This document shows, in pieces, positions 2,214 to 55,860 of a DNA stretch of 64,000 bases. The stretch comes from Gammaproteobacteria bacterium (lineage in GTDB: Bacteria > Pseudomonadota > Gammaproteobacteria > Eutrophobiales > Eutrophobiaceae). The position numbers and the translations under genes are program-made. The stretch lies in the NCBI GenBank assembly GCA_030829955.1, contig JAURNY010000018.1, positions 94,377 through 158,376 of the forward strand, in the 5' to 3' direction. Position 1 is the stretch's first letter; every line of letters begins with the position of its first letter. The notes under the pieces are model-generated. The model was not told where the DNA came from. It was given only the letters and a program-made list of their open reading frames with translations, and did not search any database.

Positions 2214-3650
<1,437 letters not shown>

Positions 3651-3658
3651 TTAAATAA

Positions 3659-13928: not shown

Positions 13929-15286
13929 TGCATATTCATATTCTGGGAATTTGCGGTACATTCATGGGCGGTATCGCGCAAATTGCAAAAAGTCTCGGTC
14001 ACAGGGTCACAGGGTCAGATCAAAATGTCTATCCTCCTATGAGCGATCAGTTACAGGGAATGGGGATCGAGTTGCAGGAAGGTTATCTGGCAGAACATCT
14101 TTTACCAGCTCCCGATATTGTGATTATCGGTAATACGATTTCCAGAGGGAATGCCGCACTTGAATATGTGTTGGAAAATCGCTTGCCATATTATTCCGGC
14201 CCGGAGTGGTTATATCGCGAAGTATTAATTAATAAACATGTTCTGGCAGTTTCTGGCACTCATGGTAAAACCACTACCACGACTATTTTGACCTGGATAT
14301 TGGAATATGCGGGCAAGCAGCCCGGATTTTTGATTGGTGGTGTAGCCGAAAACTTCGGTCTGACAGCGCGAATAACCGATAGTGATTATTTTGTTATCGA
14401 GGCAGATGAATACGATACGGCGTTCTCTGATAAGCGATCAAAATTTGTTCATTATCATCCAAAAACCCTGATCATGAATAATCTTGAGTTCGATCATGCT
14501 GATATCTTTCATGATATTGACGCTATCAAGCGACAATTTCATCATTTAGTCAAAATCATGCCCGCATCTGCGCAGATCATTTATCCAGCATTTGATAAGG
14601 AAATATGTTCGGTATTAGATATGGGCTATTGGTCTGAAACCGTCAGTTTTGGTGATGAGAACGCTGATTGGCATCTGTTACAAACCGCAGAAGATTTCAC
14701 AGAATTCAATATAGAAACAAAAGATGGAAAGCGGGCTACAGTCGACTGGTCGCTCTTGGGTAAACATAATGCTAACAATGCGCTGGCGGCAATTATGGCG
14801 GCTCACTATATTGGCATTGATGTCGACACTTCAATAGAGGCATTAAAGTTATTCAAGTCGGTTAAGCGCCGTCTGGAATGTATCTATCGATCTGAAGCAG
14901 TCACGTTATACGATGATTTTGCACATCACCCAACAGCGATAGAAACTACATTGCAGGCACTTCGTTCTCATGTTGGTGAGAAAAGAATAATAGCCATTAT
15001 GGAACCACGTTCAAATACGATGAAGATGGGGATTCATAAAGATACTCTGGCTAATTCCCTGAAGATTGCAGATGTAGTAATTGTATTTCAATCCGATGCT
15101 GTAAAGTGGGACATGCGCCAGCATATGGATGAACTCGGTGATAAATGTCAGGTCTTTACTGATATAGACGAGATAGTGTCAACGGTAAAATCACTGCATC
15201 AACATGGTGATCATATTGTTTTGATGAGTAATGGTGGTTTTGGTGGTATTCACAAAAAGTTAATCGAATTATTTAGTCATGAATGA
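13928..15286 (+). CDS. mpl: UDP-N-acetylmuramate:L-alanyl-gamma-D-glutamyl-meso-DAP ligase (murein peptide ligase)
   Basis: The track ORF starts with GTG at 13874, but the conserved Mpl N-terminus MHIHILGICGTFMGGIAQIA begins at the ATG at 13928. Mur ligase P-loop GTHGKTTTT. Confidence 0.88.
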   Translation: MHIHILGICGTFMGGIAQIAKSLGHRVTGSDQNVYPPMSDQLQGMGIELQEGYLAEHLLPAPDIVIIGNTISRGNAALEYVLENRLPYYSGPEWLYREVLINKHVLAVSGTHGKTTTTTILTWILEYAGKQPGFLIGGVAENFGLTARITDSDYFVIEADEYDTAFSDKRSKFVHYHPKTLIMNNLEFDHADIFHDIDAIKRQFHHLVKIMPASAQIIYPAFDKEICSVLDMGYWSETVSFGDENADWHLLQTAEDFTEFNIETKDGKRATVDWSLLGKHNANNALAAIMAAHYIGIDVDTSIEALKLFKSVKRRLECIYRSEAVTLYDDFAHHPTAIETTLQALRSHVGEKRIIAIMEPRSNTMKMGIHKDTLANSLKIADVVIVFQSDAVKWDMRQHMDELGDKCQVFTDIDEIVSTVKSLHQHGDHIVLMSNGGFGGIHKKLIELFSHE

Positions 15287-15872
15287 AATCGCAATCTTTC
15301 CATTAAATGTTGTTGTATTTCCGGAAGGGGAATTACCGTTGCGACTATTTGAGCCGCGTTATCTGGATATGGTTAAACGTTGTATGCGTAAGGATATTGG
15401 ATTTGGTATATGTTTAATCAGTAAAGGAAACGAAGCGGGTGTGCCTGCTGAGATAAATCTATTTGGTACCTATGTTCGAATTATTGATTGGGAACAATTA
15501 CCGGGTGGATTGCTAGGTATTACCGTTAAAGGTGAAAAACGCTTTCGTATAGAATCAAGCTGGCTACAGGATGATAATTTAAGAATAGCGGATATAACTT
15601 ATCTTGACGAAGATGATGATATTATTCCGGAAAACTATCAGGGATTTTCTGAACTACTAAAACAAATCGCCGAACGCTATGAACTTGAGATTGCTGATGA
15701 AGAAGAGCGTTTTGAAAAAGCAACCTGGGTGAGCGAGAGACTGGCAGAAATATTACCTTTTGAACTTTCTATGAAACAAACATTGCTGGAAATGGATAAA
15801 CCATTACAGCGTTTCGATTTAATGCAGGCTTTACTGGAAAAGGTAGAAGCAGGAGAGTTTAATCAGATTTGA
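15279..15872 (+). CDS. LON N-terminal (substrate-binding) domain protein
   Basis: 197 aa. Begins IAIFPLNVVVFPEGELPLRLFEPRYLDMV, typical of the stand-alone Lon N-domain family. Overlaps the mpl stop by 8 nt. Confidence 0.75.
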   Translation: MNEIAIFPLNVVVFPEGELPLRLFEPRYLDMVKRCMRKDIGFGICLISKGNEAGVPAEINLFGTYVRIIDWEQLPGGLLGITVKGEKRFRIESSWLQDDNLRIADITYLDEDDDIIPENYQGFSELLKQIAERYELEIADEEERFEKATWVSERLAEILPFELSMKQTLLEMDKPLQRFDLMQALLEKVEAGEFNQI

Positions 15873-16748
15873 TTAAGCAATAAATGTTGCTGAATCCGGT
15901 TCATCAATAATAGGGTTAGTTAACTTACCGATTTTCTCAATTTCTATGGTCACAGTATCACCGACATGCATGTAACCACTCGGTTTCATCTTTACGCCGA
16001 CACCACTACTGGTCCCCGTTGCAATTATATCTCCCGGTTCTAGTGTTATGACCTGAGATAAATAATGCACAAGAAAATAACAATCATAGATAAGATGTTT
16101 AGTATTTGAGTCCTGACGTTTGTCATTATTAACCCAGGTTTTAATATCCAGTTTATGTGGATCGCCAATCTCATCACGGGTAACTATCCAGGGACCAATC
16201 GGACCATGTGTGTCGAATGATTTTCCAAGCGTCCAGGTATGTGAGCGCATTTGCCAGTCACGTACGCTAACATCATTCACAATCGTATAACCGGCAATAA
16301 CTTCTTTTGCCTGTTCTAAAGTAACATTACGGCAACGTTTACCAATAACCAAACCAAGTTCACCTTCATAGTCGAGTTTTTCTGAAACCTTTGGCAAATG
16401 AATGGGTGCTCCAGTGCCAATGACACAACTATTTTGCTTATTAAAAAAGGTTGGATATTCAGGTTTATCCAATCCGGTTTCGGCAATGTGATCTGCGTAG
16501 TTTAGCGTGACACCGAATAACTTATCTGGCTTGAGAATAGGAGAGAGAATTTCAATATCATCAATATTGATACGGTCTGCATCATCATTAAGTATTTCCT
16601 GCATAGACTGAATAGCAGTAGCACCATCGGATAAAAACTGTTGCATACCTTTATCGTGATGATATGCCTCTGGGGCAGGACAGATACCCTGTGCATCTAA
16701 AACACCAACTTGAATACTGTCTTGATAACGATATGTGAGTAGTTTCAT
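15873..16748 (-). CDS. fumarylacetoacetate hydrolase (FAH) family protein
   Basis: 291 aa. FAH-fold motifs (DYEGELGLVIGK, VNDVSVRDWQ). Confidence 0.85.
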   Translation of the reverse strand: MKLLTYRYQDSIQVGVLDAQGICPAPEAYHHDKGMQQFLSDGATAIQSMQEILNDDADRINIDDIEILSPILKPDKLFGVTLNYADHIAETGLDKPEYPTFFNKQNSCVIGTGAPIHLPKVSEKLDYEGELGLVIGKRCRNVTLEQAKEVIAGYTIVNDVSVRDWQMRSHTWTLGKSFDTHGPIGPWIVTRDEIGDPHKLDIKTWVNNDKRQDSNTKHLIYDCYFLVHYLSQVITLEPGDIIATGTSSGVGVKMKPSGYMHVGDTVTIEIEKIGKLTNPIIDEPDSATFIA

Positions 16749-16766
16749 GATGAGAATCAGTTATTT

Positions 16767-17108
16767 TTAACCAATTATATCAATTGCCGCTTTAATAAAA
16801 AATCGTTCATGAGCAATGCTTTTGTGAATTAACCAATTTCTCTCTAATAGAAATTCTTTAAGTTTATTTTGAAAAGACTCAGGGCATGAATCATCTTTTT
16901 CGACTATGTTGACAGCTCTGCCTCGAGTATAAGAACGATACTTTTCTAAAAGTAGAACAGCCTTTACCTTTAACTTTGCTTTTTTTAATACAATAGAATG
17001 ACTGAGAGCATTTTCTACGTATTGAATAGCGCATACAGACTCGCCAACTAAGAAATATAGGTTTAGCTCTTGTTGTGAAGCTGTTTTAAATCTGGATTTC
17101 TTGTCCAC
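16767..17108 (-). CDS. hypothetical protein
   Basis: 113 aa, no recognisable domain. Likely co-transcribed with the FAH gene (19-nt gap). Confidence 0.4.
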   Translation of the reverse strand: MDKKSRFKTASQQELNLYFLVGESVCAIQYVENALSHSIVLKKAKLKVKAVLLLEKYRSYTRGRAVNIVEKDDSCPESFQNKLKEFLLERNWLIHKSIAHERFFIKAAIDIIG

Positions 17109-17285
17109 TTTGAATCCTTACAAAATATTTTCCATGTTCTACAATTAATTGTTTGCAAATGCTAACTTGTCAGTTGTCTTATGTTTACTTAGGGCTGTCA
17201 GTTTTATTATAAGGTAATATATGGTTTATTTAATTTTTGGCTTATTTTATTATCTAATTTGTTGAAATAATTAATAATAAGTCAG

Positions 17286-17936
17286 TTGAACAAAGAAAAA
17301 CGCTCGCTTATATTTTCTAAATTATGGGAACAGAATCCTAATCCCACTACTGAGCTCGTCTACAATTCGCCATTTGAATTATTAATTTCGGTGATCCTTT
17401 CTGCACAGGCGACCGATGTTAGTGTAAACAAGGCAACGAAACCATTATTTAAGTTTGCCAACACACCTGAAGCGATTCATGCGCTTGGGCTAACTAAGTT
17501 GAAACACTACATTAAAACCATTGGCCTTTATAATAATAAGGCGAAGAATATTATCGAGACCTGTAAAGCACTTATAGATGAGCATGATAGTGAGGTGCCA
17601 CAGGATAGAGAGGCATTAGAGAAACTTCCCGGGGTGGGAAGAAAAACGGCGAATGTGATATTAAATACGGCGTTTGGTGAACCTACTATCGCAGTGGATA
17701 CACATATCTTCAGGGTGTCGAATCGTACTGGAATTGCGCCAGGCAAAAATGTGCTGGATGTTGAAAAGAAGTTATTAAAACTTGTTCCGGATGAATTTAA
17801 AAAAGATGCGCACCATTGGCTGATTTTGCATGGACGCTATACTTGTATCGCTAGAACCCCGCGTTGTGCTAGTTGTGTTATCTTTGATGAATGTGAATGG
17901 CGACCCAGATTTAAACAGGCAGAGAAAGACAATTAA
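17286..17936 (+). CDS. nth: endonuclease III (DNA glycosylase/AP lyase)
   Basis: 216 aa with a TTG start. HhH-GPD motif (LPGVGRKTANVILN) and a C-terminal 4Fe-4S cysteine cluster (C-x6-C-x2-C-x5-C). Confidence 0.9.
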   Translation: MNKEKRSLIFSKLWEQNPNPTTELVYNSPFELLISVILSAQATDVSVNKATKPLFKFANTPEAIHALGLTKLKHYIKTIGLYNNKAKNIIETCKALIDEHDSEVPQDREALEKLPGVGRKTANVILNTAFGEPTIAVDTHIFRVSNRTGIAPGKNVLDVEKKLLKLVPDEFKKDAHHWLILHGRYTCIARTPRCASCVIFDECEWRPRFKQAEKDN

Positions 17937-17941
17937 GCATT

Positions 17942-18373
17942 ATGTTATTTAATAATCGAGATGAAACCCGCAAGGTCTTTTTTTCTGTATGGCAGAAAGT
18001 GCAGGTTGGGAAACAGCTTGAACCAATGGAGTCGATTATTGCCGATGTTATTAATCTGCACCCCGAGTATCAGAAAGTATTGGAAGACGAGGAAGAGGGT
18101 GTATTATCTGAATTCAAACAAGAGCAGGGGATGACCAACCCTTTCCTTCATATGGGATTGCATATTGCATTGCGTGAACAATTGGCAATGAATAAGCCCG
18201 ACGGGATAAAACAAATATATGAGCAACTTAGCAGACAATACCCGGATATTCATCAGCTTGAGCACAGTATGATTGATTGTCTGGCAGAAGCATTGTGGTT
18301 GGCGCAACTAAACAATACATTGCCAGATGAAAAACAATATCTCGACAAACTAAAACGATTACTAAACACATGA
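17942..18373 (+). CDS. DUF1841-family protein
   Basis: 143 aa. Recognisable DUF1841 pattern (FFSVWQK...LHPEY...NPFLHMGLHIALREQL...MIDCLAEALWLAQ). 4-nt overlap (ATGA) with the downstream phosphatase gene. Confidence 0.7.
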   Translation: MLFNNRDETRKVFFSVWQKVQVGKQLEPMESIIADVINLHPEYQKVLEDEEEGVLSEFKQEQGMTNPFLHMGLHIALREQLAMNKPDGIKQIYEQLSRQYPDIHQLEHSMIDCLAEALWLAQLNNTLPDEKQYLDKLKRLLNT

Positions 18374-19644
18374 GCCGCAATGTCTATGATTTGTTAACCT
18401 CGAAAAAGGGGCACTCTCTTGAAGAACAGCTCGCTTTACTTGCAGACATCTCACAAAGTTTTTCCAGTTCATTATATATAGAAGATACATTTCAAACTGC
18501 GATTATGCGTTTTATGGAATATATGGACGCGGAAGCAGCTTCTATTTTTTTATTACAAGGAAATAATAAAGAACTTGTGTGTATGGATTGTGCCGGTCCT
18601 TTTGATATAACCGGTTTAACGTTTGCAGCCAATCAAGGTATTGTTGGTAAAACGATTCAAACTCTTAGTTGCCAGTTAATTAGTGATGTTTCGAAAAACC
18701 CGGATTTTTCTAAAACCATTGATATTGGCACTGGTTTTCAGACCCGTTCAATATTATGTGTGCCCTTAATCGTCAATGAACAGTGTATTGGTGCGCTTGA
18801 GTTATTGAATAAAAAGAATGGCAAATTATTCGATGAAGATGATCGTCATCTATCTGTCGCACTGGCATCAGCAGCGGCGCTGGCGATTAATAACTCGAAA
18901 ATGGCAGAAGCATTACTTGAGCAGGAACGAATGCAAAAGGAACTGGAACTTGCCAGAGATATTCAGCTGGATTTATTGCCGGAAATGGATAGTGATTTTC
19001 CTATAAATAGTATCAATGTGCCTGCATATGAAGTGTCAGGTGATTTTTATGATTTCTTTAAACTTGATGATGGTCTGATCTATTTTAATCTCGCCGATGT
19101 GTCAGGTAAGGGAATGAATGCGGCTTTATTGATGGCACGTGCAAGCAGTTTATTACATCATCTGGCAAAATGTATTGATGATCCTGGCGAACTTTTAGCG
19201 CGAGTAAACGATGAATTATGTGAAACCATTTCGCATGGTATGTTTATTACGATTGTTTCCGGCTTCATTGATACAGAAACCTGCATTATCAAATTTGCCA
19301 ATGCCGGTCATCAACCACCACTATTTCATCATGCATCTGGTGATTTTGAAGAGATTCAAGCAGAAGCACCTCCCCTTGGAATATTACCCGGTGCAGAGTT
19401 TCCGGTAACGGAAATCAAATTGAATGATGGTTGTATTTATTTATTTACTGATGGCGTAACAGAAAGCATGGATGAGTCCCATCATGCATTGAATGTCGAT
19501 GGTTTAATTAATTTGATTGAGAACAACAGTAAGAAAGTCGCCTCTAAACGACTTGAAGATATTGTTGCCAGTATTCGTGATTTGGAGTTAAAACAGCGCG
19601 ATGATATCACCATGATGGTGATTGAATGTTGCAAGCATAAATAA
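18370..19644 (+). CDS. GAF-domain PP2C/SpoIIE-family serine phosphatase (RsbU/BtrU-like)
   Basis: 424 aa. N-terminal GAF domain and C-terminal PPM phosphatase (DVSGKGMNAALLMA...FTDGVTE...DDITMMVIE). Confidence 0.85.
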   Translation: MSRNVYDLLTSKKGHSLEEQLALLADISQSFSSSLYIEDTFQTAIMRFMEYMDAEAASIFLLQGNNKELVCMDCAGPFDITGLTFAANQGIVGKTIQTLSCQLISDVSKNPDFSKTIDIGTGFQTRSILCVPLIVNEQCIGALELLNKKNGKLFDEDDRHLSVALASAAALAINNSKMAEALLEQERMQKELELARDIQLDLLPEMDSDFPINSINVPAYEVSGDFYDFFKLDDGLIYFNLADVSGKGMNAALLMARASSLLHHLAKCIDDPGELLARVNDELCETISHGMFITIVSGFIDTETCIIKFANAGHQPPLFHHASGDFEEIQAEAPPLGILPGAEFPVTEIKLNDGCIYLFTDGVTESMDESHHALNVDGLINLIENNSKKVASKRLEDIVASIRDLELKQRDDITMMVIECCKHK

Positions 19645-20054
19645 TGGAAACCTTGTTTGAAATTCGTTTTCCGGCTTGTCCTGACAGATTGTGCATGATC
19701 CGTTCAATGGTCAGAAATACTGCGCGAGTTTGTGGCTGTAGTTCAGATCTGGCAGAACATTTAGTTATCGCTGTAAACGAGGCATGCATGAATGTGATTC
19801 AACATGCCTATCAGGGAGATGAACAGGGTGAAATCATTTTAAAAATGCTAAATAATGAAGGCAGCTTATATTTTAAACTATATGATTATGCGAACCCGGT
19901 TAATCTTGAAGATATAAAGTCTAGAGATTTGAATGATTTGAGGCCAGGGGGATTAGGTATAAATTTTATTAATGACATTATGGATGAATGTCATCGGGGA
20001 CATTTGGATGAGGGTAAAGGAAATTACCTCGAGATGATTAAAAAAATAACATAG
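19644..20054 (+). CDS. anti-sigma regulatory factor, HATPase_c serine kinase (RsbW/BtrW-like)
   Basis: 136 aa. GHKL N-box (AVNEACMNVIQHAY) and G-box (GGLGINFI). Start overlaps the phosphatase stop (TAATG). Confidence 0.85.
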   Translation: METLFEIRFPACPDRLCMIRSMVRNTARVCGCSSDLAEHLVIAVNEACMNVIQHAYQGDEQGEIILKMLNNEGSLYFKLYDYANPVNLEDIKSRDLNDLRPGGLGINFINDIMDECHRGHLDEGKGNYLEMIKKIT

Positions 20055-20069
20055 ATAAATAGGGTTCCC

Positions 20070-20420
20070 ATGGATATTAATATCACAAAATATGATGATT
20101 TTTCTGTTGTTGAATTAGTAGGTGATGTGGATCTTTCTTGTTCTCCCGACGCACGTACGCAAATTCTGAAAGTGTTAAATAATGAGACTGATTTAGCCGT
20201 AAATCTCGAAAAAGTGACTTATATTGATAGTTCAGGTATTGCCAGTCTGGTAGAAGGCTATCAAATAGCCAAAAAGAAACAATTGAGCTTTGCTCTGGTG
20301 TCAGCAAGTCCGGCAGTAATGAGTGTCCTAACATTGGCAAGACTAGATATGGTGTTTCCAATGTTTGCCAATCTCGAAGAATACAAAGCTAATCAAAGTG
20401 CATTAAAAAACCGGCGTTAG
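20070..20420 (+). CDS. STAS-domain anti-sigma-factor antagonist (RsbV/BtrV-like)
   Basis: 116 aa. STAS fold with the phosphorylatable serine in YIDSSGIASL. Confidence 0.88.
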   Translation: MDINITKYDDFSVVELVGDVDLSCSPDARTQILKVLNNETDLAVNLEKVTYIDSSGIASLVEGYQIAKKKQLSFALVSASPAVMSVLTLARLDMVFPMFANLEEYKANQSALKNRR

Positions 20421-25419: not shown

Positions 25420-26340
25420 TCATGAGCATGTATCAGTGATTTCACATTGATAAGCAGTTGATTGCATACGCATTATGCTTTGTGAATAAAGCACTATGCT
25501 GAAGCGTCCATTATCTGTAGGATCGGAAATACAGCTTTGGGCGAATGTGCCGGCAGCAGGCGGTCCAAAGAAACCTTCAGGGGTGTTGTCTGTATCCGGC
25601 CAATAATGTCCATAATCAATTTCTGATTGTGGTGCTGAACCCTTGCCATAGCGCTGCCAAGCCCAAATCATACGATTCACAAAAGGAACAATTAACTGAA
25701 AACAATAACCAACATGGACTTTTAACAAATTTGCATCTTGTATGGTCTGTGCACTTGCACCAACCAGATTGGAATCACGGTACATTAAATTATCATTCGG
25801 AATGCCTAATACCGCTCCACGTTCATCATCATCAATCATGACACCATAATCACTGAATGAATCTGCATTGGGATTAACGACAGTGATATTGACATAACCA
25901 TCATCAATTTGCTGCTGCACGATTTGACGGGCACAAAGCACGTCATCAGACTCAAACGTATTGATATTTTTATCGAGTACCCCGCGTGTATTGGTATCAA
26001 CAATTTGTGTCGCACCGACTCGTGCTTGTCTGCCAGCATCTGTATTTAGGAATGTACTGGAGCAGTCTCCTGAATTATCCATATTAAGATAACTACTGGT
26101 ATAAAGTGGTGACATATTACTGGCAAACGCGAGCTGCATATTGGATAAACTGGCATGACTGATGCTACCGGCACGAACAGTTTGGAAGGTTGCATAATTG
26201 AGCGTGACTTTGGCCTGATATATCAGGGCAAACTGTAATATACCCATTACCAGCATGAGCATAACAGGAAACACTATCAGGAACTCCACCATAGCTTGTC
26301 CATGTTGTGAATTTATATAGTGTCTATAGATAATCATCAT
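25420..26340 (-). CDS. TadE/TadF-like pseudopilin (Tad pilus minor component)
   Basis: 306 aa. N-terminal TadE-like segment QHGQAMVEFLIVFPVMLMLVMGILQFAL (G/xxxxEF pseudopilin motif plus a hydrophobic helix). Confidence 0.7.
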   Translation of the reverse strand: MMIIYRHYINSQHGQAMVEFLIVFPVMLMLVMGILQFALIYQAKVTLNYATFQTVRAGSISHASLSNMQLAFASNMSPLYTSSYLNMDNSGDCSSTFLNTDAGRQARVGATQIVDTNTRGVLDKNINTFESDDVLCARQIVQQQIDDGYVNITVVNPNADSFSDYGVMIDDDERGAVLGIPNDNLMYRDSNLVGASAQTIQDANLLKVHVGYCFQLIVPFVNRMIWAWQRYGKGSAPQSEIDYGHYWPDTDNTPEGFFGPPAAGTFAQSCISDPTDNGRFSIVLYSQSIMRMQSTAYQCEITDTCS

Positions 26341-26351
26341 GCTGCAGCTGA

Positions 26352-26825
26352 TTATTTTTCCTGAATAATCTTTTTGATTTCTTCCAGCATATCGTAAGCC
26401 TTACCATATAGAGGATCTTGTTTATCAGCATAGACTAACATTTCACTTAAACTAAATGCTGTTTGTTTTAATTGTACGACACTCAGGTTATACCAGGCTT
26501 TTGAGTGTTTAGGATCACGAATGACCGCTTCTCGATAAAGATTCATGGAGGCATAAGGTCTTTCTGTTCTGACATAGATATTAGCCATACGAAACCAGTA
26601 CTCAGCTTCCTGTGGTAATTCTTTTATCAGAATTTCGTAATATTTCTCACCATTCTGCAGGTCATCATTTTCATATGCCTGATTCGCTTTTCGTTTAATT
26701 TCCTGCAAATCAACTTGTGGCTCTGCCTCTACTTCAGTTTTATTCTGTAATGTATTACATCCACCTAGTAACAAGGCGATAGTTATTAACAGAATAGGTT
26801 TAACAAAGAGCGTTAGATAATTCAT
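26352..26825 (-). CDS. tadD: TPR-repeat lipoprotein, TadD-like
   Basis: 157 aa. Lipoprotein signal (LLLGGC lipobox) and TPR repeats, positioned after tadC. Confidence 0.6.
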   Translation of the reverse strand: MNYLTLFVKPILLITIALLLGGCNTLQNKTEVEAEPQVDLQEIKRKANQAYENDDLQNGEKYYEILIKELPQEAEYWFRMANIYVRTERPYASMNLYREAVIRDPKHSKAWYNLSVVQLKQTAFSLSEMLVYADKQDPLYGKAYDMLEEIKKIIQEK

Positions 26826-27172
26826 ATGTCCTTCCAGATAAGACGTTGTCCAATTTCTAAATTCAAGGTTTGCAATTTATTCGCATTGAGTTCAATTACT
26901 CCCTGTGCTGAATGGCAGATGGAAAAGCAGCATGGTCTTAACGTCTTTACCATTTTTACAATACGACATTCCTTATCCACATAGATTAAATCAATGCTGT
27001 AACGCATACCCAATGTATGCACAGATGAGCATGGCGTAATATATAAAGCTTCATTTGCCTGTAATTTTTTTCTAAGCAATAAACCGCAGAGTCGTTCAAG
27101 AAAGTGCGTTGTTTTTTTTACATCGGGTAAAACACATTGCTCAGGTTCAATCATTAACCTGCCATGCTTCAT
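26822..27172 (-). CDS. DUF192 (COG1430)-like protein
   Basis: 116 aa. Size and pattern consistent with DUF192. Translationally coupled to tadC upstream and tadD downstream (4-nt overlaps). Confidence 0.5.
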   Translation of the reverse strand: MKHGRLMIEPEQCVLPDVKKTTHFLERLCGLLLRKKLQANEALYITPCSSVHTLGMRYSIDLIYVDKECRIVKMVKTLRPCCFSICHSAQGVIELNANKLQTLNLEIGQRLIWKDI

Positions 27173-28050
27173 AACATGCCTTCAGACATGAATTTCATCA
27201 CGATGGGGAATCCTAATACGATAAACGTTACCGGGAAGATAAACATGATCAATGGTCCGACCAGTTTGATCGGTGCTTCCATAGCCAGTTTTTCAGCGCG
27301 TTGAAAACGCTCGTTTCTGCGCTGGTCTGATTGTACACGTAATACAGTTGCCAGTGACGCACCCATCTTTTCAGCCTGAATAATCGAACTCACAAACCCA
27401 GTAATTTCCTGAATATTTAGTCGCTCCGACATACGTCTCAGTGCATCAGCTCTTGAAAGGCCTGCACGTAGATCACGTAATACAATAGAGAACTCATTAC
27501 GTAGTGGTCCAGGAGGTGCTTTTTCCATTGCCTGTCCTAGTGCGCCTTGTAAATTTAAACCTGCTTCTACACACATCGTGATGAAATCCAGATAAACAGG
27601 CAATGTTCGTATTACTGCATTATCTCGTTTTTTTCGTGTGTCATTTAACCAGATGTTAGGAAATAAAAAGCCCAACACAGGCATAATCACAAACCAGACA
27701 GGTTGAAATTTATGCAGCATAATCATCATTAACAATGCGATGATTGGTGCAATGATTGCTGAAATAATTCTTAGCGCGATGAACTGTTCTGCATTTAATA
27801 AGTAACTAACACCAGAGTGGGTGATTTTCTTTTCAGTGCGTTCTAGAATTTCATAAGGAAAAAATACGACAAAGAAATTGGCAATGATTTGAATAAACGG
27901 CCAGATTATTTTTAATTTCCACGATAGAGGATCCATATAAGTACGATCTTCTTTATCGATCATTGAATAAACTGTACCGATTAAATATACGATCAGAAGG
28001 CCAGTTAGAAAATAACTTATGAGAGAGCCGTTGTAATATATAAAATCCAT
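27169..28050 (-). CDS. tadC: Tad pilus inner-membrane platform protein TadC (T2SS F family)
   Basis: 293 aa. T2SSF domain, second of the TadB/TadC pair. Confidence 0.85.
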   Translation of the reverse strand: MDFIYYNGSLISYFLTGLLIVYLIGTVYSMIDKEDRTYMDPLSWKLKIIWPFIQIIANFFVVFFPYEILERTEKKITHSGVSYLLNAEQFIALRIISAIIAPIIALLMMIMLHKFQPVWFVIMPVLGFLFPNIWLNDTRKKRDNAVIRTLPVYLDFITMCVEAGLNLQGALGQAMEKAPPGPLRNEFSIVLRDLRAGLSRADALRRMSERLNIQEITGFVSSIIQAEKMGASLATVLRVQSDQRRNERFQRAEKLAMEAPIKLVGPLIMFIFPVTFIVLGFPIVMKFMSEGML

Positions 28051-28061
28051 TACATTAGTCT

Positions 28062-28943
28062 CTAAACATCAATGCTTGTGATCTTACTAATCATGAAATA
28101 GCCCATAGCTTCCATCACAATAATAATTGTTAATACTACCCAGCCTATTGTCGTCGTCCAGAGTTTACTCATAGCTTCTGGCTCCATGAAATTCAGTAAA
28201 ACGCCAAGCAGTATAGGTAAGCCTGTCATCACAATGCCCTGTAGCTTTCCCTGCGCAGTTAAACTTTCAATCTTGCCTTCCATCATGGCTTTACGGCGAA
28301 GTGTTTCGCCTAGCGTTTCCATGGTTTCAGCAAGATTACCGCCAACTTCGCGGTTGATTAGCAGAGCGGTTACCAACATACCAAAGTCAGCTATTGGAAT
28401 TCGTTCTTCCATCTTCTTTATAGAGACTTCAAACTCCACGCCTAGACGTTGTTCTTTAAGAAACAGTTCAAATTCCTGTGATAGGGGGGCAGGTTGTTCC
28501 TTGACTAAACTTTCCAATGCAATATTCAAACTGGCGCCGGCACGCATCGCACCGGAAATCATTGCCAAACCATCAGGCATTTGTGCTTCGAAACGTTTCA
28601 AACGCTGTTTGCGCATTTGTTTATAAATAGCAGTTGGGAAAAATAAAATGAGTCCAAGCATGGCAACTGTGGCTGCCGTATCGCGCGTAACGACAAAGGT
28701 CAAGACTGGTAAAACAATAATGGCGATGATATTCATAGTAAAGAGCTGATTTGGATCAACTGTCATGAACATATCTGAGGCATTCGCTGTCGCTGTTGAG
28801 GTGAATGTTTGCTTATAATTATCAGCAAACTCCTGTACCTTTTTGCCAAGTGCAAACCAGATGATCGCAACTGCCAAAAACACAGCTGCTAACGATAAAT
28901 AATAAGTAACGTTTGCAGAAAGAGAAAGGAAGAAGTCCATCAT
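28062..28943 (-). CDS. tadB: Tad pilus inner-membrane platform protein TadB (T2SS F family)
   Basis: 293 aa. T2SSF domain, immediately downstream of the ATPase gene. Confidence 0.85.
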   Translation of the reverse strand: MMDFFLSLSANVTYYLSLAAVFLAVAIIWFALGKKVQEFADNYKQTFTSTATANASDMFMTVDPNQLFTMNIIAIIVLPVLTFVVTRDTAATVAMLGLILFFPTAIYKQMRKQRLKRFEAQMPDGLAMISGAMRAGASLNIALESLVKEQPAPLSQEFELFLKEQRLGVEFEVSIKKMEERIPIADFGMLVTALLINREVGGNLAETMETLGETLRRKAMMEGKIESLTAQGKLQGIVMTGLPILLGVLLNFMEPEAMSKLWTTTIGWVVLTIIIVMEAMGYFMISKITSIDV

Positions 28944-28948
28944 AATAA

Positions 28949-30643
28949 TTAAGAGAAGATAGACATATCCACTGGTAAACCTCGTTGACGCATCTCTTCA
29001 TAAAAATGAGGAATTGCACCGGTTGCTTCAAAACGACCCTTTACTTTACCGTTTTCATCAAAGCCTTCCTGTTGATAACGGAAGATATCCTGCATGGAGA
29101 CAATTCCCGATTCTACACCGGTAATTTCGGTAATGTTTATGACGCGTCTAGAACCATCTGAAAAACGGGTTTGTTGGACAACAATATGAATTGCAGAGGC
29201 GACCATTTCACGAATAGCAGAGACAGGTAAATCCATGCCAGACATCATTACCATGACTTCGATACGTGCAATCAAATCACGCGGTGTATTAGCATGCGCA
29301 GTTGTTAATGATCCATCATGACCCGTATTCATCGCCTGTAACATGTCCAGTGTTTCACCACCACGACACTCACCAACTACAATTCGGTCAGGACGCATAC
29401 GTAAACAGTTTTTTACCAAATCACGAATTGGAATAGCACCTTTACCTTCAAGGTTTGGAGGTCGTGATTCAAGACTAACAAGGTGTGGTTGTGCGAGTTT
29501 TAGTTCAGCCGCGTCTTCTACAGTAACGATACGTTCTGATGGAGGAATAAAGTTTGATAACACATTAAGTAATGTTGTTTTACCGCTACCGGTACCACCT
29601 GAAATAATAATATTCATATGGTTATTTACTGCAGTTTCCAGAAACTTAACCATGTTTTGATTTATGGCGCCAAAGTTAACCAGATCCTGTGCGACTAGTT
29701 TTTGCTTAGCAAATTTACGAATAGTTAAACAAGGACCACGTAATGCAAGCGGAGGAATAATAGCATTTACACGCGAACCATCTTTTAAACGCGCATCAAC
29801 CATAGGAGAACTTTCATCAATACGACGGCCTAGTGGTGAGACAATACGTTCTATAGCCGTCATTACCGCATCGTCACTTGAAAAGGTAATTCCTGATAAA
29901 CTTAATTTACCTGACTGTTCGACGTAAATTTCATCAAACTTGTTGACCATGATTTCAGTTACTGACTCATCTGCTAATAACTCTTCTAACGGACCGAGAC
30001 CTACGGCTTCGTTCAATACTTCTGCTGCCAGTTTTACTTTATCAACATCATTAGGCAATTTAGAACCCATCTCTTCGATGATTTCTTTAATCATGCCCTG
30101 GACATGTTTACGTAATTTTTCTTCATCCATGCTACCTATATCAGTGCGACGAAGATCCATCGCGGCTAATAGTTCATCATGTACACGATTACGCCATTTG
30201 AATTTTTCATTATGTTGAAGATTGATTAACGTTTTGCTGACTTCTTCTGATTCATCTAGTGCCTGATGATGTTGAATGCCGATGACCGTACGCATACCAT
30301 CAAATAAACTATCATCTTCTTCATCAATTTCATCCATATCGTTCGTTGCAGAACTCATGCCTGCCTTAATATAATATCCGGCGATAATGATTTCATCAGA
30401 AGATCGAATAGGACCGTGATGGTCGACATCAACACCATTGACCTCAATACGTTTCTGTCCGGTTTTATCTTCAATAAACAAACCTTCTGAAGTTCGATGT
30501 ATCTCTGCATGATGGGGTGCGACTTTCCAACCGCGTAACTGAATAAAGTTATCACGCGCCTTACCGATAGTGCACTCACTTACCGGACAATGAAAATTCT
30601 GTATTCTTTCGCCTTTACTATTATTTACGATGACATCAAACAT
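28949..30643 (-). CDS. tadA: CpaF/TadA secretion ATPase with an N-terminal FHA domain
   Basis: 564 aa. Residues 1 to ~100 show an FHA pattern (TIGKARDNFIQL...HAEIHRTSEGLFIEDK...NGVDV). The remainder is a T2SS-E/CpaF ATPase (Walker A GGTGSGKTT, Asp box, Walker B, His box). Confidence 0.88.
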   Translation of the reverse strand: MFDVIVNNSKGERIQNFHCPVSECTIGKARDNFIQLRGWKVAPHHAEIHRTSEGLFIEDKTGQKRIEVNGVDVDHHGPIRSSDEIIIAGYYIKAGMSSATNDMDEIDEEDDSLFDGMRTVIGIQHHQALDESEEVSKTLINLQHNEKFKWRNRVHDELLAAMDLRRTDIGSMDEEKLRKHVQGMIKEIIEEMGSKLPNDVDKVKLAAEVLNEAVGLGPLEELLADESVTEIMVNKFDEIYVEQSGKLSLSGITFSSDDAVMTAIERIVSPLGRRIDESSPMVDARLKDGSRVNAIIPPLALRGPCLTIRKFAKQKLVAQDLVNFGAINQNMVKFLETAVNNHMNIIISGGTGSGKTTLLNVLSNFIPPSERIVTVEDAAELKLAQPHLVSLESRPPNLEGKGAIPIRDLVKNCLRMRPDRIVVGECRGGETLDMLQAMNTGHDGSLTTAHANTPRDLIARIEVMVMMSGMDLPVSAIREMVASAIHIVVQQTRFSDGSRRVINITEITGVESGIVSMQDIFRYQQEGFDENGKVKGRFEATGAIPHFYEEMRQRGLPVDMSIFS

Positions 30644-30661: not shown

Positions 30662-32161
30662 TTAATAAACGATATCGATATTATCTCTATCAATAGCCTC
30701 TATAGTTGCGCGTATGCCTTCCTCAGCATATTCAACCATGTCACGATTATGTTGAGATTGACCGTCGATAATTTCTGGCGTGACAAAGATAACCAGTTCC
30801 GTTTTATCATTAAGAAATGATTCAGAACGAAATAGGCGACCCAGAATTGGAATATCTTTCAAAAACTTGATGCCATTAATGGTTTCTGAGGCTTGTTGGT
30901 CAATAAGCCCAGACATCACTAGTGTTTCACCTGATTTCAAGATCACATCTGCTTCTGTGCGCCTAGTTAATAAACCGGGGATGTTATTAATCGCAACACT
31001 AAAATCCAGAGAGCTAATTTCGGTGGTGACATTGGCTCTGACATTATTATTACGATCAATTTCTGGCGTTACACTTAACTGAATACCATATTCCTTAAAT
31101 TCAACTGTCGTACCATTAATGGTAGAAATCTCAATTGGAAATTCACCACCAGCTAGAAATGTTGCTTCACCACCGCTACGGGCAGTTAAACGTGGTTCGG
31201 CCAGAATCACTGCATCGCCGGAACTTACCGCAAAATTAATTCGGGAAACAATTTCTGCCGCTATACCAAAGTAACCTAATGGACTACTGGCATTGTCCGC
31301 AGCACTTAAATTACCGGTAAAACTAGGTAAACCATTATCATCAGTAACTGTTGTTCCGCGAAACGTACTATTATTTACAGCATCAAAAGCAAAGGCAGCA
31401 GTAGGGCCAGAAACCGATGTATTCCAGTTAATGCCGAGGCTGTCAGTGAAAGATTTGCTGAATTCAGTAATCTTGGTGTTCATTAACACCATTTTGTTAT
31501 CCGGCATGTTCATATCGAGACTAGCACGTTGAGTTAAATCCATCAGTTCGCTGAATTTAGCCTGAACAGTTTCAATAGCAGTTGCATAACCATTATCAAC
31601 AGTACCACTCAAGACAATATTTTCACCGACAATTCGTACTTCAAGTCCTTCCAGTTCAGATAACAGATCTTCAATTTCGAGTTTTTTTCTAACCAAATCA
31701 TTAACAGCAAAATTAATATTATTAAGAATCTCCGGATAAGCTTCTATCAGCATCGCAATTTGAGCTTCATTGCCATAACCAACCTGTCCATTAAGGATAA
31801 TACGCTCACCAACAATATCTACATGTAAACCTGGTATATGAGCCAGAAGTTTCTCAATTTCATTTTTTCGTTGATTAATATTGTTTGAAGTATTTGCTAC
31901 ATGCACCATGTAATCTTTTTCAGTGCCATTACTAAACCAGACATGAACATTGGTAGAGCCCTCTTCTTCGGCAATTAGGATTAACTGACCGCTATTTAGT
32001 AGAGAATTACTTAACACCGAGGGACTGCCGACTGCAATACGTTCAATATTGCCAAGCTTTAATATTTTGATCTCACCAATATACATATCAAAGCGTTCAG
32101 CAGCATTTACCATTGCTGTGAGCATAAGCATGCTTAGGATTAATATTATTTTTTTCATCAT
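30662..32161 (-). CDS. rcpA: Tad secretin RcpA/CpaC
   Basis: 499 aa. Signal peptide, two N-terminal secretin-N/BON-like repeats and a C-terminal secretin domain (GIKFLKDIPILGRLF). Confidence 0.88.
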   Translation of the reverse strand: MMKKIILILSMLMLTAMVNAAERFDMYIGEIKILKLGNIERIAVGSPSVLSNSLLNSGQLILIAEEEGSTNVHVWFSNGTEKDYMVHVANTSNNINQRKNEIEKLLAHIPGLHVDIVGERIILNGQVGYGNEAQIAMLIEAYPEILNNINFAVNDLVRKKLEIEDLLSELEGLEVRIVGENIVLSGTVDNGYATAIETVQAKFSELMDLTQRASLDMNMPDNKMVLMNTKITEFSKSFTDSLGINWNTSVSGPTAAFAFDAVNNSTFRGTTVTDDNGLPSFTGNLSAADNASSPLGYFGIAAEIVSRINFAVSSGDAVILAEPRLTARSGGEATFLAGGEFPIEISTINGTTVEFKEYGIQLSVTPEIDRNNNVRANVTTEISSLDFSVAINNIPGLLTRRTEADVILKSGETLVMSGLIDQQASETINGIKFLKDIPILGRLFRSESFLNDKTELVIFVTPEIIDGQSQHNRDMVEYAEEGIRATIEAIDRDNIDIVY

Positions 32162-32205: not shown

Positions 32206-32460
32206 TTATTTAGTACGTTTCGGAAACACAGTAATCTGTTTTGCAACACCATTTTCTGATTGTCCACCAACAATCATTTTTATAGGTTTCCCCTGCAAAG
32301 CAAAATTATCTATATAATTTATTTCTTGAGTTGTATGTTTATTGAATTCAACTATCGGACTATCTTTCGACGTTGTTACAATCTCATTAAATTCCGAATC
32401 ATTCGCTTGCAATGAGCTGAATAAAAATAAACAAGCTGTGCCAGCGAACACTTTAAGCAT
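32206..32460 (-). CDS. small secreted protein paralogous to the C-terminal module of the upstream CpaB-like protein
   Basis: 84 aa with a signal peptide. Its C-terminus KMIVGGQSENGVAKQITVFPKRTK parallels the C-terminus of the 704-aa protein (ELIIGGSSEDGVAKSQKVALPVETK), with visible DNA-level similarity. Start abuts the upstream stop. Confidence 0.55.
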   Translation of the reverse strand: MLKVFAGTACLFLFSSLQANDSEFNEIVTTSKDSPIVEFNKHTTQEINYIDNFALQGKPIKMIVGGQSENGVAKQITVFPKRTK

Positions 32461-41052: not shown

Positions 41053-42702
41053 ATGAAAAAATATATGGATTTAAGTCAGAAAAACGTTCTTAATTTACTG
41101 CGCGAACTGAGTGAAATCGGAATAGCGCTGTCATCTGAGCAGAAACATGAAGAATTGCTTGAACTTATCCTTATTAAAGCGATGGAAATCACCAATGCTG
41201 ATGGTGGTACGCTTTACTCTAAAACCGAAGATCAAAAGTTAAAATTTGAAATTGTTCATAATCGATCCTTAGGTATTCATAAAGGTGGCACCAGTAATGA
41301 AACCATTACATTTTATCCTATTGCACTTTACAACGAATCAGGCGAAGCAAACATACATATGGTTGCTGCGTGGGCAGCTATCAGTGGTGACATAATTAAT
41401 ATCGAAGATGCGTATGCATCCGACAAGTATGATTTTTCCGGTACGCAAAAATTTGATGAAAAAACCGGCTATTACTCGAAGTCATTCTTGACTGTGCCAA
41501 TGCGGAATCATGAAAACGAAATTATTGGCGTATTGCAACTTATAAATGCAAAAGATAAAGCTAGTAATGAAGTCATACCTTTTGATGCGCTTGATCAACA
41601 GCTGGTGGAATCTCTTTCCTCACAAGCTGCAGTTGCAATTACTAATAAAATATTGATAGAGGGTCAAAAGAAACTATTTGATTCTTTTATTCAATTAATT
41701 GCTGACGCGATTGATGAAAAATCGCCTTATACCGCAGGTCATTGTCGTCGTGTACCAGTGTTGACCAATATGTTAGCCGATGCAGTAAACAATATTAATA
41801 TCGGTCCGTTAAAAGACTTTTCCATGACAACTGATGAAAAATATGAACTGGAAGTAGCCGCCTGGTTACATGATTGCGGCAAGATTACAACGCCGGAATA
41901 TGTTGTTGATAAAAGCACTAAATTGGAAACCATATATGACCGTGTGTATGAAGTTGATAAACGTATCGAGATATTAAGACGCGATGCGATTATTAATTAT
42001 CTCAAGGCGCGTGTTCTAGAATTAAATCCTGATAATGACATTGATATGTTATTGAAAGAGAGTAATGAATTACAGCAACAATTGACTGATATTGAACAAG
42101 CCCGTGAATATATACATCTTTACAATATAGGTGGTGAATCACTAAAAGATGATGACATCAATCGTATTTCAGCGATAGCAGAAATTGAATGGATAGACGC
42201 AGAAGGTAATATTAATAAATTGCTTGATTCAGAAGAAAAGGAAAATCTGGAAATAGGTCGTGGCACATTAACTTTAAGAGAACGTGAAATTATTAATAAT
42301 CATGTTTCTGTTACGATTAAAATGCTTGAGTCATTACCTTATCCCAAACATTTAAAACGTGTGCCGGAATATGCCGGGGGGCATCATGAAAAGATCGACG
42401 GTACAGGTTATCCGAATAAATTAACGGGCAAGGAAATGTCATTACAGGCAAGAATGTTGGCAATCGCTGATGTATTCGAAGCATTAACGGCAAGTGATCG
42501 GCCTTATAAAAAAGCGATGCCATTATCTCAATCGTTAAAAATTTTGGGTCAAATGAAATTGAATAAACATATTGATGCCGATTTATTTGATATCTTTATG
42601 AATGAAAAAATCTATCTCAGTTACGCAAAAGATTATCTCAATGAAAGTCAGATCGACGATATCAGGCATGAAGAAATACCTGGTTATCAAACTTTATCCT
42701 AA
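41053..42702 (+). CDS. GAF-domain HD-GYP phosphodiesterase (putative c-di-GMP phosphodiesterase)
   Basis: 549 aa. N-terminal GAF, then an HD domain (LHDCGK) with the HD-GYP signature HHEKIDGTGYP. Confidence 0.85.
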   Translation: MKKYMDLSQKNVLNLLRELSEIGIALSSEQKHEELLELILIKAMEITNADGGTLYSKTEDQKLKFEIVHNRSLGIHKGGTSNETITFYPIALYNESGEANIHMVAAWAAISGDIINIEDAYASDKYDFSGTQKFDEKTGYYSKSFLTVPMRNHENEIIGVLQLINAKDKASNEVIPFDALDQQLVESLSSQAAVAITNKILIEGQKKLFDSFIQLIADAIDEKSPYTAGHCRRVPVLTNMLADAVNNINIGPLKDFSMTTDEKYELEVAAWLHDCGKITTPEYVVDKSTKLETIYDRVYEVDKRIEILRRDAIINYLKARVLELNPDNDIDMLLKESNELQQQLTDIEQAREYIHLYNIGGESLKDDDINRISAIAEIEWIDAEGNINKLLDSEEKENLEIGRGTLTLREREIINNHVSVTIKMLESLPYPKHLKRVPEYAGGHHEKIDGTGYPNKLTGKEMSLQARMLAIADVFEALTASDRPYKKAMPLSQSLKILGQMKLNKHIDADLFDIFMNEKIYLSYAKDYLNESQIDDIRHEEIPGYQTLS

Positions 42703-43888: not shown

Positions 43889-44731
43889 ATGAAGACTTTA
43901 ATTAACACTAAAAACATGATTTTTATAGTTTTTTTAGCCATAACAGGTGTTGTTTTCGCTGGAGTTGCCCCAGAAGATTTTCGAGAAAAAAAATCTGACG
44001 AAGCTTGGGAAAAGAATTTGCGTAAGCAAAATTTTCAGGACAGGAAAATTATTATAGGTGTTGAGCAGAATATACTTGAAGTTAAAGCACCTTACACCGC
44101 AGAAGATGCGACAGTCGTTCCCGTATCTATACACACTAAAATTGATCAAACCCCGGAACGCTATATCAAGAAAATGCACATTTTTGTGGATAAAAATCCT
44201 TTGCCATTAGTAGGTGTTTTTGAATTCACGCCAGATAGCGGTAAAGCAGATCTCGCCATGCGAATTCGTGTCGATACGTTTAGTTATGTACGTGCCGTAG
44301 CGGAACTGAATACAGGTGAATTGTACATGGCGAAAAACTTTGTAAGGGCAAAAGGCGCTTGCTCCGCACCGCCACCAGCCAGTATGGAAGATTCAAAGAA
44401 ACTGCTGGGTAAAATGAAAATGAAGATGTTAGGGAATCTCAAGTATGGTGAACCTAATTTAATGCAAGTTAAAGTGCGTCATCCAAACATTACGGGTATG
44501 GCGCCATTAAAGATTGGTTCACATGTTATTCCCCCCGCATTTTATATGGATACTTTTGAAGTTACATATAATGATAAGCCGATTGTTAAAGCATTATTAA
44601 CGTTTTCTATCAGTATGGACCCGGCATTGCGTTTTTTCTTTGTGCCTAGAAAAGAAGGTGTTATGACAGTGAAAGGTACAGATACCAAAAAGAATGTCTT
44701 TAGTTCAACCTATGAAGTCAAAACCACATAA
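43889..44731 (+). CDS. fused SoxY-SoxZ-like sulfur carrier protein
   Basis: 280 aa with a signal peptide. N-terminal SoxY-like region with the Cys in a GACSAPPP linker, and a C-terminal SoxZ-like Ig fold (VKVRHPNITGM...PAFYMDTFEVTYNDKPIVKA). Confidence 0.6.
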   Translation: MKTLINTKNMIFIVFLAITGVVFAGVAPEDFREKKSDEAWEKNLRKQNFQDRKIIIGVEQNILEVKAPYTAEDATVVPVSIHTKIDQTPERYIKKMHIFVDKNPLPLVGVFEFTPDSGKADLAMRIRVDTFSYVRAVAELNTGELYMAKNFVRAKGACSAPPPASMEDSKKLLGKMKMKMLGNLKYGEPNLMQVKVRHPNITGMAPLKIGSHVIPPAFYMDTFEVTYNDKPIVKALLTFSISMDPALRFFFVPRKEGVMTVKGTDTKKNVFSSTYEVKTT

Positions 44732-45091
44732 GTGATAAGTTTCAGTATGTTTTGGAAATAATTATTAAAGGGGCAATATCATCCTGTTAATATTGATGAA
44801 CTTGAAGTCTGGGCTCAGGAAACCGAACCACAAGTGGAAAAAGGTATTCGTTCAGTTGAAGGCAAATGGAGGGTTATACTGGCCTCATATGAAAACTAGC
44901 AGATCGTATTTCAACAGCAAAATCAAATATTACAAGTAGGTATGGCGATTGATATTGATCAGGAATATATTAATTAACAAGCTTGGTTTAGATTAGTGAT
45001 AGTAAGTTACAGAGCAGATGCAAGTTTATTTTAGATGAAATGAAATCTACTTATGGTTTTTGCCAGCCCGCGCATAAGTAAGCGATAATAT

Positions 45092-50839: not shown

Positions 50840-50850
50840 TTAATTCGTTT

Positions 50851-55846: not shown

Positions 55847-55860
55847 CCCTCTACAAAAAT

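Follow-up and report, generated by a model that had tools for sequence, protein, structure and literature searches.

The window considered here is a stretch of 64,000 nucleotides (64 kb) from a gammaproteobacterial genome assembly (GCA_030829955.1, contig JAURNY010000018.1, positions 94,377 to 158,376 of the forward strand), and our subject is a gene within it that encodes a CpaF/TadA motor ATPase carrying a forkhead-associated (FHA) domain at its N-terminus. The gene is part of a Tad-type pilus operon of 13 genes on the minus strand, flanked by htpG and mutS. The operon begins with a Flp-like pilin, a TadG-like protein, three proteins of unknown family (352, 239 and 121 amino acids), CpaB/RcpC, a further unknown of 84 amino acids, the secretin and FHA-CpaF, and continues with TadB, TadC, a DUF192 protein, a small tetratricopeptide repeat (TPR) protein and a TadE-family protein. 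FHA-CpaF was encoded, accordingly, alongside TadB, TadC, a CpaB/RcpC-secretin pair and pilins of the Flp/TadE type. The motor gene and its parts are as follows.

28949..30643, minus strand: FHA-CpaF/TadA motor ATPase gene, 564 amino acids plus stop (open reading frame (ORF) list; Pfam FHA and T2SSE)
30353..30643, minus strand: FHA beta-sandwich, residues 1-97 (Pfam, AlphaFold2 (AF2) model, Foldseek, residue comparison)
30203..30352, minus strand: acidic disordered linker, residues 98-147 (predicted local distance difference test (pLDDT) values, non-alignability, start of the CpaF structure alignment)
28952..30202, minus strand: CpaF core, residues 148-564, made up of a three-helix bundle, an N-terminal domain and an ATPase domain
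29576-29599, minus strand: Walker A motif GGTGSGKT, residues 349-356, within the CpaF core

The FHA-CpaF motor and its ligand face

The start codon of FHA-CpaF is the first possible one past an in-frame stop and lies 18 nucleotides downstream of the secretin gene. The interval 30344-30643, in which the initial annotation had placed an FHA domain joined to CpaF at its N-terminus, corresponds to codons 1-100 of the ORF at 28949-30643 (minus strand), and the placement was confirmed. Pfam assigned FHA (PF00498) to residues 24-87 at 32.2 bits (E 1.5e-7; gathering cut-off 20.7), and an AF2 model of residues 1-140, made with 25 family sequences as input, was all-beta over residues 1-97, with block-mean pLDDT values of 80-91 over residues 1-90. 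When the model was compared with the PDB by Foldseek, all 50 of the best matches listed were FHA domains, with template modelling (TM) scores of up to 0.81; they included Ki67 (2aff, E 1.3e-6, TM 0.80), FhaA, GarA/OdhI, EmbR and KIF13B. The YscD-like domain 4d9v of the type III secretion system (T3SS) was among the Foldseek matches, and Yop-YscD_cpl was a weak Pfam match. The alternative that the extension is a three-helix CpaF N-domain was excluded by the all-beta model together with the 50 PDB matches.

The ATPase behind the FHA domain proved to be complete, as the initial annotation had stated. A T2SSE domain was found on residues 213-491 (E 1.9e-63), and residues 138-559 aligned with the C. 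crescentus CpaF structures 9e24 and 8rkd at E values of ~1e-124 (9e24: 420 bits, E 9e-125). The runner-up among the structures was FlaI, at 139 bits, and the CpaF match was far stronger than those to FlaI or VirB11; the core was nearer to CpaF than to PilB, GspE, VirB11 or FlaI. The best NCBIfam model was the TadA-family TIGR03819, at 335.6, which is under its cut-off of 373. Across 82 CpaFs the columns from G349 to K355 were invariant. No CbiA or AAA_31 match, which would mark a TadZA-type fusion, was found on the window FHA-CpaF protein.

Between the two domains, the AF2 model was disordered over residues 98-140 (pLDDT <50), and the linker could not be aligned across FHA-CpaF representatives. 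Its motif MKTVIG was kept within the close family; as a general linker motif or phospho-acceptor it was rejected, not being conserved across the wider FHA-CpaFs. The gene was, with near certainty, a 'class III' CpaF/TadA motor comprising an FHA domain, a disordered acidic linker and a complete hexameric CpaF core, and the joining of an N-terminal FHA domain to the core by a disordered region agrees with the definition of that class (PMC12019362). The combination of FHA and T2SSE was present in all 120 of the homologue clusters listed (76-100% identity), and therefore the fusion is not an assembly artefact. An iterated profile detected the FHA domain in 56-57 of the 150 top-ranking representatives (50% identity) for the window protein, so the fused architecture is common. 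The closest relative of FHA-CpaF among the genome matches listed, at 61% identity, was on a 5.5-kb contig (CAZAUR010000059.1, locus L006) of a metagenome-assembled genome (MAG) labelled Spirochaetaceae; the other close relatives were all from Gammaproteobacteria, and the label may reflect a binning error or a transfer. Relatives closer than 61% were drawn from a protein search and from contig records.

Phylogeny was assessed by neighbour-joining (NJ) only, on the ATPase core and with bootstrap. The 14 proteobacterial FHA-CpaFs, including the window gene, formed one NJ branch with 89% bootstrap. Monophyly of all FHA-CpaFs was also considered, as the first NJ tree placed them in one clade, but bootstrap for that clade was 6-8% and a single origin is not claimed.

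In canonical FHA domains the phosphate is held by an Arg (in 'GR'), a Ser (in 'SxxH') and a loop of the form S/T-x-N, and these phosphate-contact residues were seen in the alignment with Rv1747. In the window protein the pocket reads G27-K28, A42-P-H-H45, a D59-KTGQKR loop where the canonical loop is DLGSTNGT, and N69-G70. The signature on which the initial annotation relied was therefore present in part: G-K (where G-R is usual) and N-G occur in residues 1-100, whereas S-x-x-H does not, its place being taken by A42-P-H-H45. The structural residues G27, H45 and N69-G70 were retained; among FHA-CpaF representatives G27 never varied and H45 occurred in 56 of 57. The residues that contact phosphothreonine were not retained, with Arg replaced by K28, Ser by A42 and the S/T-x-N loop lost. 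With the pocket assessed by sequence alignment, the earlier statement that this domain binds phosphothreonine was not supported, given the replacement of the predicted contacts (K28, A42, KTGQKR for GSxNGT).

All 120 of the close-relative clusters listed had K28 and 117 of them had A42, and the loops 'IGKARDNFIQLRGW' and 'RTSEGLFIEDKT' around the replaced residues were almost invariant among close relatives. Such conservation suggests that a function is maintained on the usual ligand face with a different chemistry. The FHA domain of the proteobacterial branch was under strong purifying selection, and the pocket Ser had become Ala or Gly in 13 of its 14 sequences, mostly after a branch-specific Trp. 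The nearest PDB sequence matches included the FHA domains of KIF13B and afadin, which share the x-P-x-H variant.

A different situation was found in Kil-like loci (Myxococcota, Lentisphaerota and relatives), which keep a GR...SRxH...SxNGT pocket and in which further FHA proteins occur, together with Hanks-kinase motifs and PP2C-like genes. Over the 39 FHA-CpaF loci listed, 9 of 13 with a canonical pocket had a kinase motif or an additional FHA ORF, vs 3 of 26 with a non-canonical one (p 5e-4). The case for a phosphorylation-dependent role of the window FHA domain is weak, and its degenerate pocket cautions against annotating these motors as phosphorylation-controlled.

FHA and TadZ across CpaF loci

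For the window itself, Pfam was run on every ORF of at least 110 amino acids across the 64 kb, and a TadZ profile and a regular expression for Hanks-kinase motifs were run on all ORFs of at least 50 amino acids. Neither TadZ/CpaE nor any other ParA/MinD-like protein was found in the window by Pfam or by the TadZ profile within those size limits, in agreement with the absence of TadZ noted in the initial annotation. The same annotation had suggested looking for a Ser/Thr kinase or an FHA partner near the locus; Pfam and the motif search found no Ser/Thr (Hanks) kinase in the 64-kb window, and there was no second FHA ORF in it.

Species-representative genomes were scanned with an FHA-CpaF alignment, and 80 diverse CpaF loci were taken from among the matches listed. 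With a replicate drawn from metagenome contigs, 160 CpaF loci were sampled in total. A locus took in as much as 10 kb to either side of CpaF, and loci were classified by local profiles of three kinds (FHA, CpaF core and TadZ). All counts in this survey refer to the matches listed, and the samples were not random.

In the genome sample, TadZ was found in 0 of 18 loci whose CpaF carried FHA (FHA+). The 62 loci without FHA (FHA-) included 43 with a separate TadZ, 1 with a TadZ split by a frameshift and 12 with a TadZ-CpaF fusion; a separate TadZ was nearly always on the same strand and directly upstream of CpaF. The 6 FHA- genome loci in which no TadZ was found all came from Planctomycetota; in a related locus TadZ lies at a distance of 9.4 kb. 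The metagenome replicate gave the same picture, with TadZ in 0 of 15 FHA+ loci, while its 45 FHA- loci comprised 35 with a separate TadZ, 7 with a fused one and 3 with none. Combined, TadZ was present in 0 of 33 assessable FHA+ loci vs 98 of 107 FHA- loci (Fisher p 3.5e-24, uncorrected for phylogeny), bearing out the earlier suggestion that the fusion coincides with loss of TadZ. Pfam agreed with the profile classification, detecting FHA in 18 and CbiA in 12 of 82 CpaFs and AAA_31 in 43 of 44 TadZ ORFs. Weak 'TadZ-like' matches in three FHA+ loci (L007, L008 and L026) covered a receiver-like N-domain only and were rejected as response regulators.

TadZ-CpaF fusions numbered 19 (12 genome and 7 metagenome loci), and none had an FHA domain; the fused TadZ occupies the same N-terminal position as FHA does in the window protein. 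The genome fusions were L014, L016, L019, L020, L022, L027, L034, L036, L041, L057, L071 and L084, in addition to the 7 metagenome loci. The fused TadZ part was a ParA-like domain without the receiver-like domain, and by contig title such fusions extend beyond Bdellovibrio to MAGs of Oligoflexia, Omnitrophota, Elusimicrobiales, WOR-3 and Eremiobacterota.

FHA-CpaF and TadZ were mutually exclusive in the sampled loci. No report of this exclusion was found in the literature, and the connection to TadZ is circumstantially strong and apparently unreported.

Known systems and the proposed role of the FHA domain

The fusion of FHA to CpaF is itself already published, as class III CpaF and as KilF, and the window gene is a further example. 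CpaF orthologues have been sorted into three classes, of which class III, mostly from betaproteobacteria, adds an N-terminal FHA domain linked to an intrinsically disordered region (IDR) (Nat Commun 2025, PMC12019362). Class III members such as E3HIW0 of Achromobacter xylosoxidans have the same order of FHA, disordered linker and core (FHA-IDR-3HB-NTD-CAD, with 3HB the three-helix bundle, NTD the N-terminal domain and CAD the ATPase domain; PMC12019362), and the betaproteobacterial loci L012, L013, L023, L063 and L079 share both the window's 89% branch and its 'GW[RK][VI][AG]xxHA' motif. Differences were also evident. The window bearer is an uncultured marine gammaproteobacterium, whereas the class as described in PMC12019362 is mostly betaproteobacterial; that article calls the FHA domain phosphothreonine-binding, whereas the window pocket is degenerate, and gammaproteobacterial members show the strongest degeneration (K28, A42 and loss of the loop). 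TadZ/CpaE is not mentioned in the article (PMC12019362).

KilF of Myxococcus xanthus is an ATPase with an N-terminal FHA domain, and the Kil system uses this single ATPase (eLife 2021, PMC8460266). The window operon resembles it as a Tad-like machine with one hexameric FHA-fused ATPase and no TadZ-type second ATPase (PMC8460266). Kil loci, however, have several more FHA proteins, and the relatives L015, L017, L026 and L029 have kinases and canonical pockets, whereas the window has a single FHA domain and no kinase, in one contiguous operon that retains TadG and, in the TadD position, a TPR protein. Of the extra FHA proteins and signalling genes that mark a Kil-type locus, the window has neither another FHA ORF nor a kinase motif. 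From canonical Tad/Cpa loci the window operon differs in having neither TadZ/CpaE nor TadV/CpaA in the locus.

The literature describes TadZ as positioning TadA, or the machine as a whole, in Aggregatibacter and Caulobacter, and the TadZ-less Kil machine as assembling at contact sites. In the TadZA fusion of Bdellovibrio bacteriovorus, the TadZ part and a linker recruit the motor to the polar hub RomR (bioRxiv 10.64898/2026.07.08.737194). The window protein is similar in that an N-terminal domain is flexibly linked to the motor and no separate TadZ gene is present, but the Bdellovibrio domain is the ParA/MinD-like part of TadZ and not an FHA domain. Other secretion machines offer a parallel for the altered pocket. 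The ATPase EssC of the type VII secretion system (T7SSb) has N-terminal FHA domains without phosphothreonine-binding residues (PMC4925161), and EssC and the T3SS protein YscD/EscD are, as in the window, FHA folds on machine parts that lack those residues; homology to the window protein is limited to the FHA fold, as EssC belongs to the FtsK-like ATPase superfamily and YscD/EscD is not an ATPase. Fha1/TagH, a T6SS (type VI secretion system) protein, is alike in that FHA ties the building of an envelope machine to a cue. It is phosphothreonine-dependent, however, with PpkA and PppA encoded in its cluster, and the window has neither a kinase nor a phosphatase of that kind.

From these comparisons we favour, with moderate confidence, a composite account in which a class III motor works in a TadZ-less operon and its FHA domain acts as a phospho-independent docking module in the place of TadZ. 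The six linker-tethered FHA domains of each hexamer would be flexible, putative docking modules whose action does not depend on phosphorylation. They could draw the motor to the TadB/TadC inner-membrane platform or to a positional cue, or keep it there, and would assume the adaptor and positioning job that TadZ has in canonical Tad systems. The ancestral state was probably a phosphothreonine-reading FHA domain under neighbouring Ser/Thr kinases, as still found in Kil-like loci, and the proteobacterial branch would have shed its dependence on kinases. As TadZ is fused at the same N-terminus in other lineages, it is a reasonable functional guess that FHA occupies the TadZ slot, but the step from exclusion to substitution is tentative, perhaps somewhat short of probable. 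A broader proposal, which we raise as possible and rather doubtful, is that three mutually exclusive couplings of motor to cue exist (separate TadZ, fused TadZ and fused FHA) and that the proteobacterial FHA domain is a constitutive, phospho-independent, full substitute for TadZ in a distinct and widespread subtype with its own accessory genes.

Several points weigh against substitution of TadZ by FHA. The p value of the co-occurrence is inflated by shared ancestry; given the 6-8% bootstrap for joint monophyly, the number of independent events behind the exclusion may be anything from one to about five. Only ~10 kb on either side of CpaF was covered, so TadZ or a kinase could lie elsewhere, as the Planctomycetota TadZ at 9.4 kb illustrates, and both collection scans gave only the matches listed, hence non-random samples. 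Absence of TadZ need not mean that FHA has replaced it, as positioning may simply be dispensable. Finally, phosphate could still be bound at a site made up of Lys28, the invariant Arg30 close to it and Thr61.

This last point leads to the alternative that the FHA domain is still a phosphothreonine reader and that a distant Hanks-type kinase marks a Tad component or the linker, switching on recruitment or activity of the motor in the manner of T6SS Fha1/PpkA or of the proposal for Kil, which we consider unlikely. The above-threshold Pfam match and canonical fold are in keeping with a reader, as are the retained G27, H45 and N69-G70, the basic K28 and R30 near the pocket, the nearly invariant T61, and the Kil-like relatives that combine canonical pockets with kinases and PP2C-like genes nearby. 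Against this stand the Ala that replaces Ser in 117 of the 120 close relatives listed (within the branch, 13 of 14 sequences have Ala or Gly), the vanished S/T-x-N loop, the lack of any kinase within the 64 kb, and the kinase motif or extra FHA gene in just 3 of the 26 non-canonical loci listed. A change from Ser to Ala at the SxxH position abolishes phosphopeptide binding in FHA domains that have been studied, which also counts against a reader.

A more specific source of phospho-signal was proposed in the initial annotation, namely the partner-switching module at 18370-20420, where a GAF-SpoIIE phosphatase, an RsbW-like kinase and a STAS protein are encoded. The window contains all three genes, and in the closest contigs they are again found near the operon. 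They are, however, on the opposite strand, with mutS, an ABC ATPase and other genes in between; the module proteins had no homologues in any of the 19 other FHA-CpaF loci checked; and the module is absent from the relative L086, where the operon lies between ligA and a GGDEF gene. Kinases of this kind act on their own STAS partner, usually phosphorylating a STAS serine, while FHA domains are phosphothreonine-specific, and the FHA pocket here is degenerate. It is very improbable that this module supplies a signal read by the FHA domain, and as a conserved association the link was effectively refuted by its absence from those 19 loci.

A third explanation, improbable in our judgement, is unrelated to TadZ: FHA could be an intramolecular regulator that docks on the ATPase core or the acidic linker and gates ATP turnover or extension and retraction. 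The flexible and strongly acidic tether of the FHA domain fits this idea, as does the conservation of the MKTVIG motif in the close family, and truncation of the disordered region of CpaF affects extension and retraction in Caulobacter (PMC12019362). The linker and its motif were not conserved across the wider FHA-CpaF group, however, and intramolecular regulation leaves the complete mutual exclusion with TadZ unexplained.

The either/or pattern offers a concrete candidate for the missing adaptor in TadZ-less Tad systems, and three couplings, if real, would set apart a widespread, distinct Tad subtype that lacks TadZ and has accessory genes such as that for the 239-amino-acid protein. The combination of FHA-CpaF, no TadZ, DUF192 and the 239-amino-acid protein could serve as a signature of such a Tad subtype, while detection models that count TadZ as Tad-specific may score these systems as incomplete.

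The operon and its surroundings

The remaining genes of the operon, from the pilin to the gene next to mutS, are listed below; counts are given as the number of FHA-CpaF loci with a homologue.

38675..38911, minus strand: Flp-type pilin candidate with a GQGMTEY processing motif (weak Flp_Fap match, E 2.8e-4, under the cut-off; homologues in 16/20 loci)
36751..38601, minus strand: TadG-like protein (Pfam Tad PF13400, 36.7 bits; 14/20)
35696..36754, minus strand: 352-amino-acid protein with a pseudopilin-like N-terminus, GQSMTEF (no Pfam or NCBIfam match; 13/20)
34977..35696, minus strand: 239-amino-acid protein with a signal-peptide-like N-terminus (no family match)
34599..34964, minus strand: 121-amino-acid pseudopilin-like protein, GQGMVEF (Pfam, NCBIfam and sequence check; family unassigned)
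32461..34575, minus strand: CpaB/RcpC homologue, 704 amino acids (TIGR03177 pilus_cpaB, 128 bits; RcpC and DUF3659 repeats)
32206..32460, minus strand: 84-amino-acid secreted protein (also gene-called in related contigs; family unassigned)
30662..32161, minus strand: RcpA/CpaC secretin (Secretin PF00263, 141 bits, and T2SS-T3SS_pil_N)
28062..28943, minus strand: TadB-like platform protein (T2SSF PF00482)
27169..28050, minus strand: TadC-like platform protein (T2SSF PF00482)
26822..27172, minus strand: DUF192 protein (PF02643, 55.5 bits; 15/20)
26352..26825, minus strand: small TPR protein in a TadD-like position (TPR matches; 13/20)
25420..26340, minus strand: TadE-family minor pilin, 306 amino acids (TadE PF07811, 46.8 bits; 15/20), the last gene of the operon ahead of mutS

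The 239-amino-acid protein is a possible subtype-specific component, with homologues in 7 of 20 FHA-CpaF loci vs 0 of 62 FHA-less loci. The CpaB/RcpC homologue has an ordinary CpaB part (residues 12-325) followed by about 350 residues of degenerate repeats ('AAGLTVNENGQIVDKDGKVV...'; DUF3659, 5 stretches). The long form occurs in relatives too (708 amino acids in L086 and 980 in L087). Tandem repeats at the DNA level were sought in the CpaB gene and none were found, the repeats being visible only at the protein level.

Four or five of the operon products carry processing motifs of the G/xxxxE[YF] type. No prepilin peptidase (TadV/CpaA, peptidase A24) was found among window ORFs of at least 110 amino acids; the enzyme may be encoded elsewhere or supplied by PilD, and supply by PilD has been reported for Bdellovibrio (bioRxiv 10.64898/2026.07.08.737194).

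The same TadZ-less operon was found in relatives, in the same chromosomal context in L087 and in a different one in L086, between ligA and the GGDEF gene. Among PLSDB plasmids, one FHA-CpaF aligned over the FHA region, from Moraxella bovis, and an FHA-less Burkholderia locus was used as a control. The homologous TadZ-less FHA-CpaF operon of M. bovis is on a 130-kb plasmid (NZ_CP087831, locus L004, 4417-14861), and in the Burkholderia control TadZ lies immediately upstream of CpaF. The M. bovis operon is neighboured by a DUF2235 gene and a gene for a 1516-amino-acid protein with an RHS repeat-associated core domain (1-4038 and 14880-19430). DUF2235 is a lipase-like family met among T6SS effectors. 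This neighbourhood is reminiscent of the killing role of Kil, an analogy for which the RHS toxin gene would be the only hint.

Beside the window's pilus operon, just downstream of htpG, lies a gene with GAF and HD-GYP-type (HD_5) domains (41053-42702, plus strand). HD-GYP domains are often phosphodiesterases of cyclic di-GMP (c-di-GMP), although HD_5 by itself is insufficient to establish that activity. Together with the GGDEF gene that flanks the operon in L086, this neighbour is a hint that the pilus may be under c-di-GMP control.

Farther from the operon, genes for a SoxYZ fusion, a sulfite-oxidase-like molybdopterin oxidoreductase and a cytochrome c were found at 43889-46937 (plus strand). 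A phosphonate-type cluster at 46981-51582 (minus strand) encodes a phosphoenolpyruvate (PEP) mutase-nucleotidyltransferase fusion, a thiamine pyrophosphate (TPP)-dependent decarboxylase-like protein, an aminotransferase and a further nucleotidyltransferase, and genes for a mannose-1-phosphate guanylyltransferase and a glycosyltransferase lie near it at 54398-56541. The cluster and the sugar genes together suggest a phosphonate-decorated surface glycan. At the end of the window (61952-63927, minus strand) are genes of hopanoid type, which encode a squalene-hopene cyclase, a PNP_UDP_1 phosphorylase-superfamily protein and an MMPL transporter.

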